From the NCBI GenBank assembly GCA_044374175.1, contig JBILPB010000003.1, forward strand, positions 1 to 62,468: 62,468 nt of DNA. Reading direction: 5' to 3'. The notes under the pieces are model-generated. The model searched no databases. It worked only from the letters and a program-made list of their open reading frames with translations, and was not told the origin of the DNA. Numbering within the stretch: position 1 is the stretch's first letter; the number at the start of each line of letters is the position of its first letter. The position numbers and the translations under genes were made by a program. Shown here piece by piece: positions 3 to 4,906 of the stretch. The DNA comes from Bacteroidia bacterium (lineage in GTDB: Bacteria > Bacteroidota > Bacteroidia > UBA4408).

Positions 3-917
3 TTTGATGAATTATACGCCTTAATTGAACTTTCCGACAATTTAACTAAAAAACCAAGAGTGGCCATTAGAGTTAATATGGATACAGGCATCTATCCTAT
101 GTGGGATCGTTTTGGTTTTAATTATGAGAACGGCACTGCCTGGAATGCCATTACCAAAATTGTTGCTTCTGGAAAACTAAATCTGGTGGGCCTTCATTGC
201 CACATTGGCACCTATATGCTCGCACCTTGGGCCTATGCAACGGCAGCATCAAAGTTGTGTGACCTTGCATGGCATGCAAAAAATCAATTAAACAATCCAG
301 TTCAGTACCTAGATCTTGGAGGTGGTTTTCCGAGCGCTAATACACTTAAAGGAGCCTATTTACCTGGCTCAGATACTGTGCCTCATATTGAAGAATTTGC
401 CGAAGCTATTGCAAGCACAATTATAGCTTATGGCTTTAAACCAGACGAATTGCCTTTGCTTATTTTAGAGAGTGGTAGAGCATTGATTGATGATGCAGGA
501 TATTTATTAGGAACTATTTTAGCCAACAAAAGGTTGAGTGATGGCCGAAGAGCAACTATCTTAGATTTTGGTGTAAATATACTTTTTACCTCATTTTGGT
601 ACGACCATAAAATTAGTCCTGCGCAAGATTTTACGCATCACTCCGAAGATCAGGTTTTATATGGACCACTTTGCATGAACATTGATGTTATTAGAGAAAG
701 TGTAAATTTACCACTTTTAAATAAAGGAGATCAAGTGGTAGTGCATAAAGTTGGGGCCTACAACATGACACAATGGATGCAATTTATTGCGATGAGACCA
801 AATGTGATTATGATTGATACCAAGGGAGAAACGCATTTAATTAGAAAAAAAGAAACATTGCAATATTTAGAAATGCCCGAAGAAATGCCATTGCACTTGA
901 AAGAGTTTAAATTATAA
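3..917 (+). CDS. Fold-type III PLP-dependent decarboxylase (DAP/Orn/Arg decarboxylase family), 5'-partial
   Basis: Frame is open from position 3 (FDELYALIELSDNLTKKPRVAIRVN), so the true start lies upstream of the window. Motifs GLHCHIGT, LDLGGGF, ESGR, GPLC..D and VGAY are present. Confidence 0.9.
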   Translation, partial: FDELYALIELSDNLTKKPRVAIRVNMDTGIYPMWDRFGFNYENGTAWNAITKIVASGKLNLVGLHCHIGTYMLAPWAYATAASKLCDLAWHAKNQLNNPVQYLDLGGGFPSANTLKGAYLPGSDTVPHIEEFAEAIASTIIAYGFKPDELPLLILESGRALIDDAGYLLGTILANKRLSDGRRATILDFGVNILFTSFWYDHKISPAQDFTHHSEDQVLYGPLCMNIDVIRESVNLPLLNKGDQVVVHKVGAYNMTQWMQFIAMRPNVIMIDTKGETHLIRKKETLQYLEMPEEMPLHLKEFKL

Positions 918-927
918 CTAGTAAAAA

Positions 928-3102
928 ATGATTAAGAAAAAAGCAGGATTTATTTTTGAAGGCGTAATCAACAGTTACTCTGTCTTGTTTTTTTCTAATC
1001 ATAAGGTATTTGCATACTTATTACTGGTTATAAGCTTTTTTAATCCTGCTGCTGGTTTAGCTGGTTTAATAGCTGTTTTAACTGCGGTTTTTACAGCAAC
1101 TACAATGGGATTTAATGCAGCATCAACCAAAGCAGGTTTTTATAGTTTTAATGCTTTGCTTATAGGTATTGGTTTGGGTTCTTTTTTTGAAAGTTCTCCT
1201 GTGTTTTTCTTCTTATTAATTTTAGCATCTTTATTTACTTTGGTGCTATCGGTTACGCTAAGTGGTGTTTTAGGAAAATATGGCTTACCTTTTTTATCTA
1301 TTCCCTTTATTACTACTTTTTGGATACTCCTTCTGGCCACCAAAGAGTTCAGCAATTTGGGATTGAGTCAGAGAAATATTTATTGGATCAATGAAATGTA
1401 TGCTGTTGGGGGTAAACCCTTGTTAAGTTTATTTAATAGCATCGAAAATATTCCTATTCCAAAATGGCTCTCTACCTATTTCAGAGCCTTGAGTTCCATC
1501 TTTTTTCAGGATAATATTTTAAGTGGTTTTTTACTTTCGATAGGCATTTTAGTTTACTCAAGAATTGCCTTTTCACTCAGTTTAATTGGCTTTTTTGGGG
1601 CTTATTTGTTTAACGATTTTACTGGTGCCTATGAGGCTGGCATCAACTCCTATCATTTGGGTAGTAATTACATGATGACAGCCATGGCAATAGGTGGTTT
1701 CTTTGCTATACCGAGCTTCTATAGTTATATATGGGCATTTTTTAGTGTTCCCATTACTAATATTTTGGTGATTGCCCTCTCAAAAGTTTTTGGGGTTTTT
1801 GCTTTGCCTATTTTCTCGTTACCATTTTGCATCATGATTTTGTTGTATTTATACTTTTTAAAAATGCGAATTTTAGCAGGAAAATTGGTTCTAACACCCA
1901 TTCAACATTACTCTCCAGAAGTTAATTTATATCAGTTTAAAAATGGCAGTGAGCGGTTAAAAAATGAATATTATTTTAAATTTAATTTGCCTGTGATCGG
2001 AGAATGGGCAGTTACACAAGGTTATGATGGAAACATTACCCATAAAGATGATTGGAGCAAGGCCTTAGACTTTATGATTTTAGATCAACAACTTAAATCA
2101 TTTTCTGGCAACGGAACCGCACTTGAAAATTTTTACAGCTATAACAAACCCGTATTGGCCGCGGGAGATGGCTATGTGCAGGAAATTGTAGACTATATTG
2201 AAGATAATCCAATTGGAGAAATTAACAGAGAACAAAATTGGGGAAATTCAATAATATTGTATCATTCCATAGGTTTATTTTCAAAGTTATCGCATCTTAA
2301 GAAAAACTCATTTATTGTAAAGCAAGGCGACTACGTAAAAAAGGGACAAGTGCTTGCTTATTGCGGTAATTCTGGAAGATCACCTGAACCACATTTACAT
2401 TTTCAAATTCAATCAGCACCTTATATTGGCAGTAAAACACTGGCTTATCCAATCAGTTATTTTTATCAGAGTGATGGAAAAGACATTCAATATCTAACAT
2501 TTTCTACTCCTCAAGAAGGCAGCTTTGTTGCAAATATCAATATCAACAAATTATTGCATCAAGCATTTGCCTTCCAACCAGGATATAGTATTAAATATAA
2601 AGAAGGAAACACGATTGAAACGTGGACTGTGTTCACTGATGCCTACAATCAAACCTATATTAGTTGTAAGGAAAACAACGCGGTAGCCTACTTTGTAAAC
2701 AATGAAACTGTTTTTTATTTTACTAACTTCTATGGAAGTAAAGCCTCCATATTGTATCAATTTTATTTATCTATATTTAAAGTTGTATTGAGTTACATGC
2801 CGCAAGTTATCATCAACGATGTGCTTCCATTAAGTATGGTGCAAGCGCCTTTTGTAAAATTAATACAAGATTTTGTGGCTCCGTTTGTGCAACTTATAAA
2901 ACCAAAGTACACGTTAAATTATACAAGTATAGATGATGAACATTTTACTTCTGAAATAACGCTTGAATCTATAATTGAGATTGACGCTATGGGTTATAAA
3001 AGTGTTTTCAGAACTAGCCAAATAATTTTAAGCAATGGAAAATTAAATCAATTAGTGATTAATCAAGCTGGCAAGGAGAGAGTTTTTACATGTATAGATT
3101 AG
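928..3102 (+). CDS. Urea transporter (UT) family membrane domain fused to an M23 metallopeptidase domain and a C-terminal extension
   Basis: The first ~310 aa are hydrophobic with duplicated UT-like halves (GFYSFNALLIG/PFLSIPF and GSNYMMTAMA/PIFSLPF). They are followed by M23 motifs: HKDDWSKALDF, VLAAGDG, NWGNSIIL, SHLKKNS..VKQGDYVKKGQVLAYCGNSGRSPEPHLHFQ. Confidence 0.85.
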   Translation: MIKKKAGFIFEGVINSYSVLFFSNHKVFAYLLLVISFFNPAAGLAGLIAVLTAVFTATTMGFNAASTKAGFYSFNALLIGIGLGSFFESSPVFFFLLILASLFTLVLSVTLSGVLGKYGLPFLSIPFITTFWILLLATKEFSNLGLSQRNIYWINEMYAVGGKPLLSLFNSIENIPIPKWLSTYFRALSSIFFQDNILSGFLLSIGILVYSRIAFSLSLIGFFGAYLFNDFTGAYEAGINSYHLGSNYMMTAMAIGGFFAIPSFYSYIWAFFSVPITNILVIALSKVFGVFALPIFSLPFCIMILLYLYFLKMRILAGKLVLTPIQHYSPEVNLYQFKNGSERLKNEYYFKFNLPVIGEWAVTQGYDGNITHKDDWSKALDFMILDQQLKSFSGNGTALENFYSYNKPVLAAGDGYVQEIVDYIEDNPIGEINREQNWGNSIILYHSIGLFSKLSHLKKNSFIVKQGDYVKKGQVLAYCGNSGRSPEPHLHFQIQSAPYIGSKTLAYPISYFYQSDGKDIQYLTFSTPQEGSFVANININKLLHQAFAFQPGYSIKYKEGNTIETWTVFTDAYNQTYISCKENNAVAYFVNNETVFYFTNFYGSKASILYQFYLSIFKVVLSYMPQVIINDVLPLSMVQAPFVKLIQDFVAPFVQLIKPKYTLNYTSIDDEHFTSEITLESIIEIDAMGYKSVFRTSQIILSNGKLNQLVINQAGKERVFTCID

Positions 3103-4298
3103 CAATCATCATATGGTTTTGTTTAAGTTGTGTAAGCTCGGTAAGTAGTCAGCAGATTACCTATGGCTATTTTGATAGTTTAAGCTATGCACAATATGTG
3201 GCGGGCGATTGGGATCATTTATTGCAAACTGCTGAAATTGCCAAAAATGCCGATATCAGTTTTCCTTTGTTAAGTATGAGAATAGGTTATGCTGCCCTAA
3301 TGAAAGGCAATAATAGTTTATCATTAAAGCATTATTCAAACGCTTTGGAATTTGATAGTTATAATCAAGATGCACTTTATTATGCTGTGCTCAACAATAC
3401 CTTACTTTCGAGAAGAGATGCTGCATCGTATATTTCTTTAAATTTAAATGATGCTATCAAAAAGCCATTAAATGTGGGATATAAAAAGTTGGTAGAAATA
3501 ATAGATATAGAATTGAGCTTTAAGTCTACCAATAATGAAACGCGTAAGCTAGGTCAATACTATAGGTTTGGCATTGGAAATAGAATTAATTACCGTTGGA
3601 AACTTTATCATAGCTTTATAACCTACAGACAGAATTTATTAGAGCCTAAAACTAATCAGAGAAATGCTGGTCCTCCAAACAGAAACGCACCAATAAGTTT
3701 TAGAAGTTTCTTAACACATGATTATCAATACTTTTTAAAATCTGAAGTATGTATAAATTCTAAATTCTCATTGACTAATGCATTTCATTACACACATACT
3801 AATTTTGATGATGCAACTTATAATACCTATATTTTTAATATTGGGCTTAAAATAACACAACCATTTATTGATTATAAAATTGAGTTAAACGCAGGTCCAA
3901 TGCTTGATTCATTGCTAGCTCAAGTGGCAGTATCATCGACATACCAGCCATTTGGAAATTTAATTTTTTATGGAAACAGTAGATTGAGTTTTCAAAAAAG
4001 AACCCACCAATCTCAACTTAATTTTTCGCAAATGCTTGGGTTTAAACTTAGTAATAAATTATGGTTAGAAACACATGCTACACTTGGACAAATAAAAAAC
4101 TTAATTGACAACGATGCCCTTTATATTTACGATGCACTTGATGCTGGTAAATTTAGAATTGGGGCAAGCCTATTGATACCTTTTACACCAAAACTTACCT
4201 TCCAAGGAAATTATTATTTCGAACCAAAAATACTATATTTACAAAACAACATTTACAATTTAAATTCATTTACATTAGGAATATCATGGAAACTATAA
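3090..4298 (+). CDS. Secreted protein with N-terminal TPR-like helices and a probable C-terminal outer-membrane beta-barrel
   Basis: Signal peptide, a TPR-like segment (RIGYAALMKGNNSLSLKHYSNALEFDSYNQDALYY), alternating aromatic beta-strands in the C-terminal part, ending GISWKL. Confidence 0.55.
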   Translation: MYRLAIIIWFCLSCVSSVSSQQITYGYFDSLSYAQYVAGDWDHLLQTAEIAKNADISFPLLSMRIGYAALMKGNNSLSLKHYSNALEFDSYNQDALYYAVLNNTLLSRRDAASYISLNLNDAIKKPLNVGYKKLVEIIDIELSFKSTNNETRKLGQYYRFGIGNRINYRWKLYHSFITYRQNLLEPKTNQRNAGPPNRNAPISFRSFLTHDYQYFLKSEVCINSKFSLTNAFHYTHTNFDDATYNTYIFNIGLKITQPFIDYKIELNAGPMLDSLLAQVAVSSTYQPFGNLIFYGNSRLSFQKRTHQSQLNFSQMLGFKLSNKLWLETHATLGQIKNLIDNDALYIYDALDAGKFRIGASLLIPFTPKLTFQGNYYFEPKILYLQNNIYNLNSFTLGISWKL

Positions 4299-4906
4299 AA
4301 AAAATATTCATTGCTTTTGCAATTATTAGTGTTCAAAATTATGCATTTGCGCAAACAGAAGTGGCGCAGCAAAAAGCCTTTTCGGCCAGTTATATAGCAG
4401 AAGGAAAATATAATTATACTGAAGCCATTACCCAAATAAACAATGTTTACTTAGAAGGAAATTATGAAATGAATTTGCGTTTAGGTTGGCTAAATTACTT
4501 GACAAAGAATTATACAAATGCTATTAAGTATTATGAAAAAGCTACCACTTTAAAACCTTATGCTATTGAAGCAAAATTTGGTTTAATAAAGCCATTAGCA
4601 GCTTTAGAGAGTTGGGATAAGGTGATTAAGCAATATGAATCTATACTTATTATTGATCCGCAAAGCACTGTTGCTAATTACTACTTAGGTTATGCTCTTT
4701 ACAACAGAAAACAATATGAAACTGCCAGTAAGCACTTTGAGAAGGTGGTAAATCTTTATCCTTTTGATTATGACAATTCTATTATGTTGGCCTGGACTTA
4801 TTTTCGTTTAGGCAAAAATAATGAAGCTAAAGTGCTTTTTAATAAAGTGCTATTGATGAGCCCAAATGATGCATCGGCTTTAGAGGGATTAGCATCTTTT
4901 AAATAA
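4286..4906 (+). CDS. Exported tetratricopeptide-repeat protein
   Basis: Signal peptide (AFA-Q) and several TPRs, e.g. ANYYLGYALYNRKQYETASKHFEKVVNLYP. Confidence 0.85.
   Translation: METIKKIFIAFAIISVQNYAFAQTEVAQQKAFSASYIAEGKYNYTEAITQINNVYLEGNYEMNLRLGWLNYLTKNYTNAIKYYEKATTLKPYAIEAKFGLIKPLAALESWDKVIKQYESILIIDPQSTVANYYLGYALYNRKQYETASKHFEKVVNLYPFDYDNSIMLAWTYFRLGKNNEAKVLFNKVLLMSPNDASALEGLASFK

Follow-up and report, generated by a model that had tools for sequence, protein, structure and literature searches.

Which substrate does a decarboxylase use when the cysteine of its catalytic loop is followed by methionine, in the place of the glutamate found in LysA? The question is raised by the gene at the start of a contig from a Bacteroidia bacterium (genome G000), whose 62,468 nucleotides are referred to here as the window. 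An earlier note on this DNA had called the methionine non-canonical and had suggested that the enzyme acts on a different, possibly acylated or peptide-bound, substrate rather than on meso-diaminopimelate (meso-DAP). Our comparison of sequences, models, gene neighbourhoods and genomes indicates that the gene does not encode LysA, and it points with a probability of about 0.6 to a FigC-type decarboxylase whose substrate would be an amide-linked amino acid, the product of the ATP-grasp enzyme encoded next to it.

The gene is truncated at the start of the window, which opens inside the open reading frame.

3-917, + strand: 3′ part of the decarboxylase gene, 304 codons plus stop (PF02784, PF00278), with a 127-base overlap with the end of contig C138

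The first stop in this frame lies at 915-917, giving a translation of 304 residues. Another contig of the assembly, C138, carries the first 148 codons at its end (L003 14380-14946), and 127 identical bases inside the gene are common to positions 1-127 of the window and positions 14822-14948 of C138 (L003), the kind of overlap that k-mer assemblers commonly leave. When the two contigs are joined, a single open reading frame of 452 amino acids results, in which the pair is Cys372-Met373; the PLP-binding lysine, Lys83 in the motif W-S-Y-K-T, is encoded on C138. The assembly break cuts one gene, and its operon, onto two contigs. The completeness of G000 is 94.7%.

Pfam detects PF02784 and PF00278 in both the window part and the C138 part of the gene. 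The AlphaFold2 model of the decarboxylase has a mean pLDDT of 87.8, and its top fold matches all belong to the alanine-racemase-fold family; judged by domains and model, the enzyme is an alanine-racemase-fold (AR-fold, fold-type III) PLP decarboxylase. The best structural match in a Foldseek search of PDB chains is 7KH2, with TM scores of 0.81/0.89, ranking above DAPDC, D-ODC and BtrK. FigC (7KH2) is also the best solved sequence match of a full-length homologue in HMMER (E 1.3e-52, 182 bits), followed by Methanocaldococcus jannaschii DAPDC (152.8 bits), D-Orn/D-Lys decarboxylase (∼81 bits) and BtrK (78.6 bits), and SbnH fell below the E 1e-10 threshold of this search against PDB chains.

For scoring against family models, we used P0006, a full-length homologue with 96% identity. 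It reaches 218.9 bits on the lysA model TIGR01048 and 205 bits on the FslC model NF041039, below the respective cut-offs of 297.9 and 500; the two halves of the window gene score 122 and 96.7 bits on TIGR01048. None of 10 diverse representatives could be assigned to a named NCBIfam family, all of them scoring around 200 bits on the lysA as well as the FslC model. The decarboxylase belongs to the LysA/FigC-like, non-polyamine branch, "clade 2" of PMC7857480. Every match in a plasmid collection had less than 30% identity, and no close relative was found there.

Alignment to FigC and DAPDC places the functional residues of the window part as follows, where "operon copies" are the 81 copies from the operon described below.

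195-479, + strand: cofactor-binding residues within the window part, all invariant in 81/81 operon copies
195-203, + strand: His213/His215, equivalent of FigC H198
318-326, + strand: Gly254-256 loop, equivalent of FigC G237-239
468-470, + strand: Glu304, equivalent of FigC E287
477-479, + strand: Arg307, equivalent of FigC R290
588-602, + strand: specificity (3-10) helix T-S-F-W-Y, by alignment to 7KH2 and 1TWI, with roles from PMC7857480
588-590, + strand: Thr344, at the position of DAPDC Arg343 and FigC T327
597-599, + strand: Trp347, at the position of FigC T330
600-602, + strand: Tyr348, at the position of FigC Y331
663-686, + strand: catalytic-Cys loop G-P-L-C-M-N-I-D, by alignment; Cys and Met invariant in 81/81 operon copies
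672-674, + strand: Cys372, catalytic cysteine
675-677, + strand: Met373, the residue after the cysteine
681-683, + strand: Ile375, at the position of FigC H357
759-779, + strand: Tyr loop Y-N-M-T-Q-W-M, by alignment to FigC
759-761, + strand: Tyr401, equal to FigC Y383
771-773, + strand: Gln405, equal to FigC R387, invariant
777-779, + strand: Met407, equal to FigC N389, invariant

The earlier note had read a catalytic cysteine at 672-674 followed by methionine, and both parts of this reading hold. In the HMMER alignment, the cysteine coincides with C354 of FigC (GPSCMQHD) and with the cysteine of the CES motif of M. jannaschii DAPDC, and it is therefore the catalytic-loop cysteine. Since the identical octapeptide GPLCMNID is present in 121 of 121 close database homologues, and the cysteine and methionine are kept in all operon copies from Chitinophagales, Sphingobacteriales, Bacteroidales, Flavobacteriales and Cytophagales, the Cys-Met motif is not a chance feature. 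Residues Lys83, His213/His215, Gly254-256, Glu304, Arg307, Cys372 and Tyr401 are likewise invariant (81/81) and align with the FigC residues described in PMC7857480; the enzyme is predicted to be catalytically complete. Conservation in the specificity helix is almost as strict, with Thr in 79, Trp in 81 and Tyr in 80 of the 81 copies.

The residue pair has a precedent. FigC (FslC) is the N-citrylornithine decarboxylase of rhizoferrin biosynthesis in Francisella, with a known structure (PDB 7KH2; PMC7857480). It carries the pair C354-M355, and M355 packs on the aliphatic chain of the N-acylated ornithine; in the docked complex with N-citrylputrescine, the aliphatic part stacks on Y383 and M355 (PMC7857480). 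FigC T327 occupies the place of DAPDC R343, the arginine that binds the distal carboxylate of meso-DAP (PMC7857480). In our alignment, Met373, Tyr401 and Thr344 stand at the positions of M355, Y383 and T327, and a further tyrosine (Tyr348) stands at that of Y331. The Cys-Met state is missing from the residues listed in the earlier note, yet it is known biology, described for FigC in 2020. Among the 79 nearest full-length representatives of 50%-identity clusters, obtained by an exhaustive HMMER search, C-M is the majority state (48), ahead of C-T (10), C-L (4), C-I (4) and C-E (2).

Compared with LysA (1TWI, 1KNW), the window enzyme shares the fold as well as the residues for PLP binding and catalysis, but the LysA sequence C-E-S is changed to C-M-N and LysA Arg343 to Thr344. 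Both DAP-specific contacts, the glutamate after the cysteine and the arginine of the specificity helix, are thus replaced. In LysA, ODC and ADC, an acidic residue holds the amine of the side chain; Met373 stands in its place.

We calculated a tree of 103 rows with IQ-TREE (LG+G4); the rows include LysA from Bacteroidota and Listeria, E. coli MccE, an exosortase-associated decarboxylase and an ADC-like outgroup. LysA of Bacteroidota relatives, Listeria LysA and the sole C-E-S-G-D representative form the canonical LysA clade (SH-aLRT 98). A different clade of 39 rows, supported by an SH-aLRT of 97 and marked by the signature C-M-[NQ]-x-D / T-W-Y / Y..T-Q-x-M, contains the window decarboxylase. 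A constrained tree that unites the operon clade with canonical LysA is worse by 148.9 lnL (p-AU 0.00018). Clustering within LysA clades, which the earlier note had named as a refutation of its inference, is therefore not observed. Three members of the 39-row clade (P0154, P0210 and P0220) have alanine or proline in the catalytic-Cys column; these may be inactive paralogues or alignment slips.

The similarity to FigC has clear limits. The two enzymes share only about 28% identity. In FigC, the carboxylates and the hydroxyl of citrate are bound by H357, R387 and possibly N389, which correspond to Ile375, Gln405 and Met407 in the window enzyme, all of them invariant or nearly so. Since these FigC residues are not conserved, the analogy is restricted to the region formed by Cys-Met and Thr. 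At its near end (Cys-Met, Thr344, Tyr348 and Tyr401), the pocket is FigC-like. Its far end is formed by Ile375, Trp347, Gln405, Trp406 and Met407, which are invariant or nearly so in the 81 copies, with Trp406 added relative to FigC. As this end is neutral and hydrophobic, we infer that the distal part of the conjugate is not a polycarboxylate. The acyl group would also differ from citrate, because neutral or hydrophobic residues replace those that bind citrate in FigC.

FigC works downstream of an amide-forming ligase, and the window enzyme also has a ligase gene adjoining its own. The ligase partner of FigC is an IucA/IucC NIS synthetase, whereas that of the window enzyme is an ATP-grasp protein. 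The operon contains six genes, in the order PqqD-like, ATP-grasp, decarboxylase, urea-transporter::M23, a protein of 402 amino acids without family and a TPR protein.

Contig C138, upstream of the decarboxylase gene: PqqD-family gene (PF05402)
Contig C138, upstream of the decarboxylase gene: ATP-grasp gene, 351 amino acids (PF15632, PF02655)
928-3102, + strand: urea-transporter-like membrane domain fused to an M23 metallopeptidase, 724 amino acids (PF03253, 3e-55; PF01551, 6e-16)
3090-4298, + strand: fifth operon gene, 402 amino acids, no Pfam or NCBIfam match
4286-4906, + strand: sixth operon gene, TPR protein, 206 amino acids (TPR families), position kept in related loci

Unlike the FigC locus, the operon contains envelope genes and no siderophore receptor, and NIS synthetase and siderophore transport genes are absent beside the decarboxylase. 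The ATP-grasp protein matches PRK12767 models ("carbamoyl-phosphate-synthase-like") below their cut-offs, and the search for solved relatives of it gave no informative structure (best E 2e-4). The M23 domain (window 928-3102) scores below every named peptidoglycan-hydrolase model, with 47.8 bits against a cut-off of 300 at best, and is followed by about 220 residues without a family match.

Among at least 594 relatives identified by a pattern scan with one genome per species, the best 80 loci extend across Bacteroidota orders, and in them the six genes keep this order on every contig of sufficient length; the urea-transporter::M23 gene comes after the decarboxylase in essentially all 80, and the fifth gene keeps its position in most, at 20-33% identity. 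In metagenomes, we also found a natural fusion of ATP-grasp and decarboxylase of 871 amino acids, preceded by a PqqD gene (L015 10001-12616; L016 4864-7479). The gene after this fusion encodes a protein of 637 amino acids without a Pfam match. In distant members of the clade, SIR2 replaces M23 by the urea-transporter domain, either as a separate gene (L106 3156-5006) or fused to it (L107 7337-8986), so that the position beside a urea channel is taken by either of two unrelated domains that cleave amides. Locus L107 also encodes an ATP-grasp protein of 719 amino acids with faint PylC-like matches. Searches of a literature library for the operon, or for the trio of RRE, ATP-grasp and decarboxylase, found no paper describing either.

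We examined the neighbourhoods of eight Cys-Met relatives outside the Bacteroidota operon, three of them inside the 39-row clade. Six of the eight have an ATP-grasp or IucA/IucC-type ligase in the gene cluster: an ATP-grasp gene in P0140, P0159, P0166, P0176 and P0180, and an IucA/IucC synthetase in P0194. One further relative (P0202) adjoins a PqqD gene. The metagenomic P0194 gene (C-M-Q-K-D; L113 1-6251) follows genes for a TonB receptor, a PepSY_TM protein, the IucA/IucC synthetase and an MFS transporter, a siderophore layout like that of FigA/FigB/FigC, here outside Francisella. One exception, P0148 from within the 39-row clade, lacks a ligase gene nearby, which shows that Cys-Met and a ligase do not always go together. 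Within this small sample of eight neighbourhoods, the observations fit an association of Cys-Met with substrates made by an amide-forming ligase.

In the reading to which we assign the probability of about 0.6, the non-LysA, FigC-type decarboxylase would work as the second step after the adjacent ATP-grasp enzyme. The ATP-grasp enzyme would make an amide conjugate, in the simplest case an Nω-acyl compound resembling ornithine, lysine or diaminobutyrate. The decarboxylase would then take the α-carboxylate off the free α-amino-acid end, leaving an N-acyl amine whose acyl part, given the neutral, hydrophobic back of the pocket, would be something other than citrate. The product would be passed to the fusion of urea channel and M23 amidase. 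The order of ligase and decarboxylase is assumed here, and the substrate and the fate of the product are our inferences. Viewed in this way, the enzyme appears to be a variant of the conjugate-acting AR-fold decarboxylases with its own pocket, a predicted RRE-docking tail and an ATP-grasp partner.

A more tentative extension of this scheme is a pathway of ligation, decarboxylation and deacylation at a channel, which would run from the conjugate over the N-acyl amine to a small amine or amide released for export. The ATP-grasp enzyme would mask a diamino acid as its amide, and a leader-like tail would tether the decarboxylase to the PqqD-type adaptor. The amine or amide would finally be freed by an amidase, M23 in this operon and SIR2 in other phyla, that is fused to a urea-type channel. 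We consider this complete route possible but doubtful.

The two steps could also occur in the reverse order, with a free amino acid being decarboxylated first and the resulting amine then ligated to a carboxylate by the ATP-grasp enzyme. The hydrophobic pocket (Met373, Ile375, Trp347, Trp406 and Met407) would in this case bind a neutral or hydrophobic side chain, in keeping with the lack of an acidic or basic residue where LysA, ODC, ADC, FigC and SbnH hold charged side chains, and neither operon linkage nor fusion fixes the order of the steps. However, the named members of the branch other than LysA and D-ODC, namely FigC, SbnH, AcsE, MccE and BtrK, use conjugates (PMC7857480); MccE, through its N-terminal domain, SbnH and AcsE belong to the same AR-fold decarboxylase branch. 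MccE itself differs from the window enzyme in having Cys-Phe in the tree alignment, and the tree places it elsewhere, at the end of a long branch. The combination of Cys-Met and Thr is moreover common to FigC, whose methionine packs on an acylated-ornithine chain, and we regard decarboxylation of a free amino acid as unlikely.

The PqqD-like gene at the head of the operon raises a second alternative. Compared with LysA, the operon decarboxylases have an N-terminal extension of about 33 amino acids, in which Y6, E7, P9 and I11 are invariant or nearly so; FigC also lacks this tail, with its Y-E-x-P-x-I motif, and the PqqD-like partner. RREs of lasso-peptide systems read Y-x-x-P-x-L leaders, and the tail motif resembles such leaders. 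A complex prediction for the PqqD-like protein and the decarboxylase gave a score of 0.64, whereas the best control scored 0.00. In the calibration, 58 of 80 solved complexes but also 2 of 110 mismatched pairs attained this mark; the counts apply only approximately here, since our own alignments were used. The runs show at least 57% contact agreement and a partner pLDDT of at least 80. The predicted interface involves decarboxylase residues 3-14 and 16 on one side and partner residues 22-30 together with the partner's helices on the other. The model supports binding, most likely with the PqqD-like protein docking as an adaptor on the decarboxylase's own N-terminal Y-E-x-P-x-I tail. Since RRE-leader complexes have been solved, the high score may stem from resemblance to them.

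The ATP-grasp enzyme could instead attach an amino acid to the carboxylate of a peptide or carrier presented by the PqqD-like protein, and the amino acid would then be decarboxylated in place, following a BtrI/BtrJ/BtrK-like or RiPP-like logic. A PqqD-family protein (RiPP recognition element) would suit this role, and the combination of ATP-grasp, AR-fold decarboxylase and small protein matches the layout of BtrJ, BtrK and BtrI of the butirosin side chain, where BtrK works on an amino acid already tethered by ligation. BtrK is recognisably related and has a matching fold, but its sequence match (78.6 bits) is much weaker than that of FigC, and the small protein differs: BtrI is an acyl carrier protein, whereas that of the window operon has the PqqD/RRE fold and is modelled on the enzyme's tail. 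The operon encodes no phosphopantetheine carrier, and we found no plausible small ORF for a precursor peptide, conserved or otherwise, around the PqqD gene. The C-terminus of the PqqD-like protein was also considered as a LysW-like attachment point, and this idea was dropped since its length and sequence are variable, unlike those of a carrier with a fixed attachment residue. With the complex model placing the PqqD-like protein on the conserved tail of the decarboxylase itself, a peptide- or protein-bound substrate is rather improbable. Of the two substrate types named in the earlier note, the acylated one is therefore favoured by the operon link to ATP-grasp and the fusion, and the peptide-bound one is made less likely by the tail-docking model and the lack of a precursor.

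The genomes bear on the enzyme's relation to lysine. No canonical lysA above the cut-off is present in G000; the separate lysA that the earlier note had proposed to look for is thus absent from this genome, which holds dapA (312 bits) and dapF (207 bits). The same is true of seven other genomes of the genus that we searched, none of which has a canonical lysA and which keep dapA and dapF. Within the family, the window-type gene is present in 10 of 14 genomes without canonical lysA compared with 1 of 5 with it, the genomes being kin and not independent. Absence of lysA and presence of the operon tend to coincide in this family, for which shared ancestry may be the reason, and this leaves slight room for a role connected with lysine. 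The only other AR-fold decarboxylase of G000 is an arginine-decarboxylase-like protein of 463 amino acids (G000:C115; L006 1357-3878), whose gene is divergent from an arginase/agmatinase-family gene, the two being likely a polyamine pair.

In larger genomes, the two genes coexist. All five of the larger operon-bearing genomes (Pedobacter, two Mucilaginibacter, Prolixibacteraceae and Paludibacter) also hold a separate lysA, with scores of 276-408 bits, four of the five above 297.9, and all of these fall into the canonical LysA clade. The relatives G017, G021 and G027 likewise have both a canonical lysA and a window-type decarboxylase. Conversely, dapF without either of the two genes is seen in G011 and in two genomes of the same genus as G000 with 99% completeness, G003 and G006, indicating that the lineage lives without any LysA; it is probably a lysine auxotroph that keeps the DAP pathway for peptidoglycan. 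Since the lineage tolerates the loss of LysA and lysA coexists with the window-type gene elsewhere, the missing canonical lysA of G000 does not rescue a LysA role. That the gene encodes a divergent meso-DAP decarboxylase (or an enzyme for N-acylated DAP) supplying lysine where canonical lysA has been lost, in line with the gene content of G000 and its family and with automatic annotation in public records, is highly improbable in view of the replaced DAP contacts, the position outside the LysA clade with its AU rejection, the genomes with both genes or with neither, and the fixed place of the gene in an operon of six genes, among them those for a ligase and envelope proteins. The decarboxylase is not the lysine-pathway enzyme LysA, and the earlier suggestion of a substrate other than DAP is supported by the missing DAP determinants, the tree and the coexistence with lysA.

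Hundreds of Bacteroidota genomes label the window-type gene diaminopimelate decarboxylase, and in genomes without another lysA, such as G000, this label would wrongly predict lysine prototrophy. A cheap annotation rule, in which C-E plus Arg denotes LysA and C-M plus Thr denotes the conjugate-acting FigC type, would put many gene labels right. It also draws attention to a ligase-decarboxylase pathway, as yet uncharacterised, that is present in cultured strains of Pedobacter and Mucilaginibacter. If the pathway with deacylation at a channel is true, Cys-Met would be a general sequence marker of conjugate-acting AR-fold decarboxylases.
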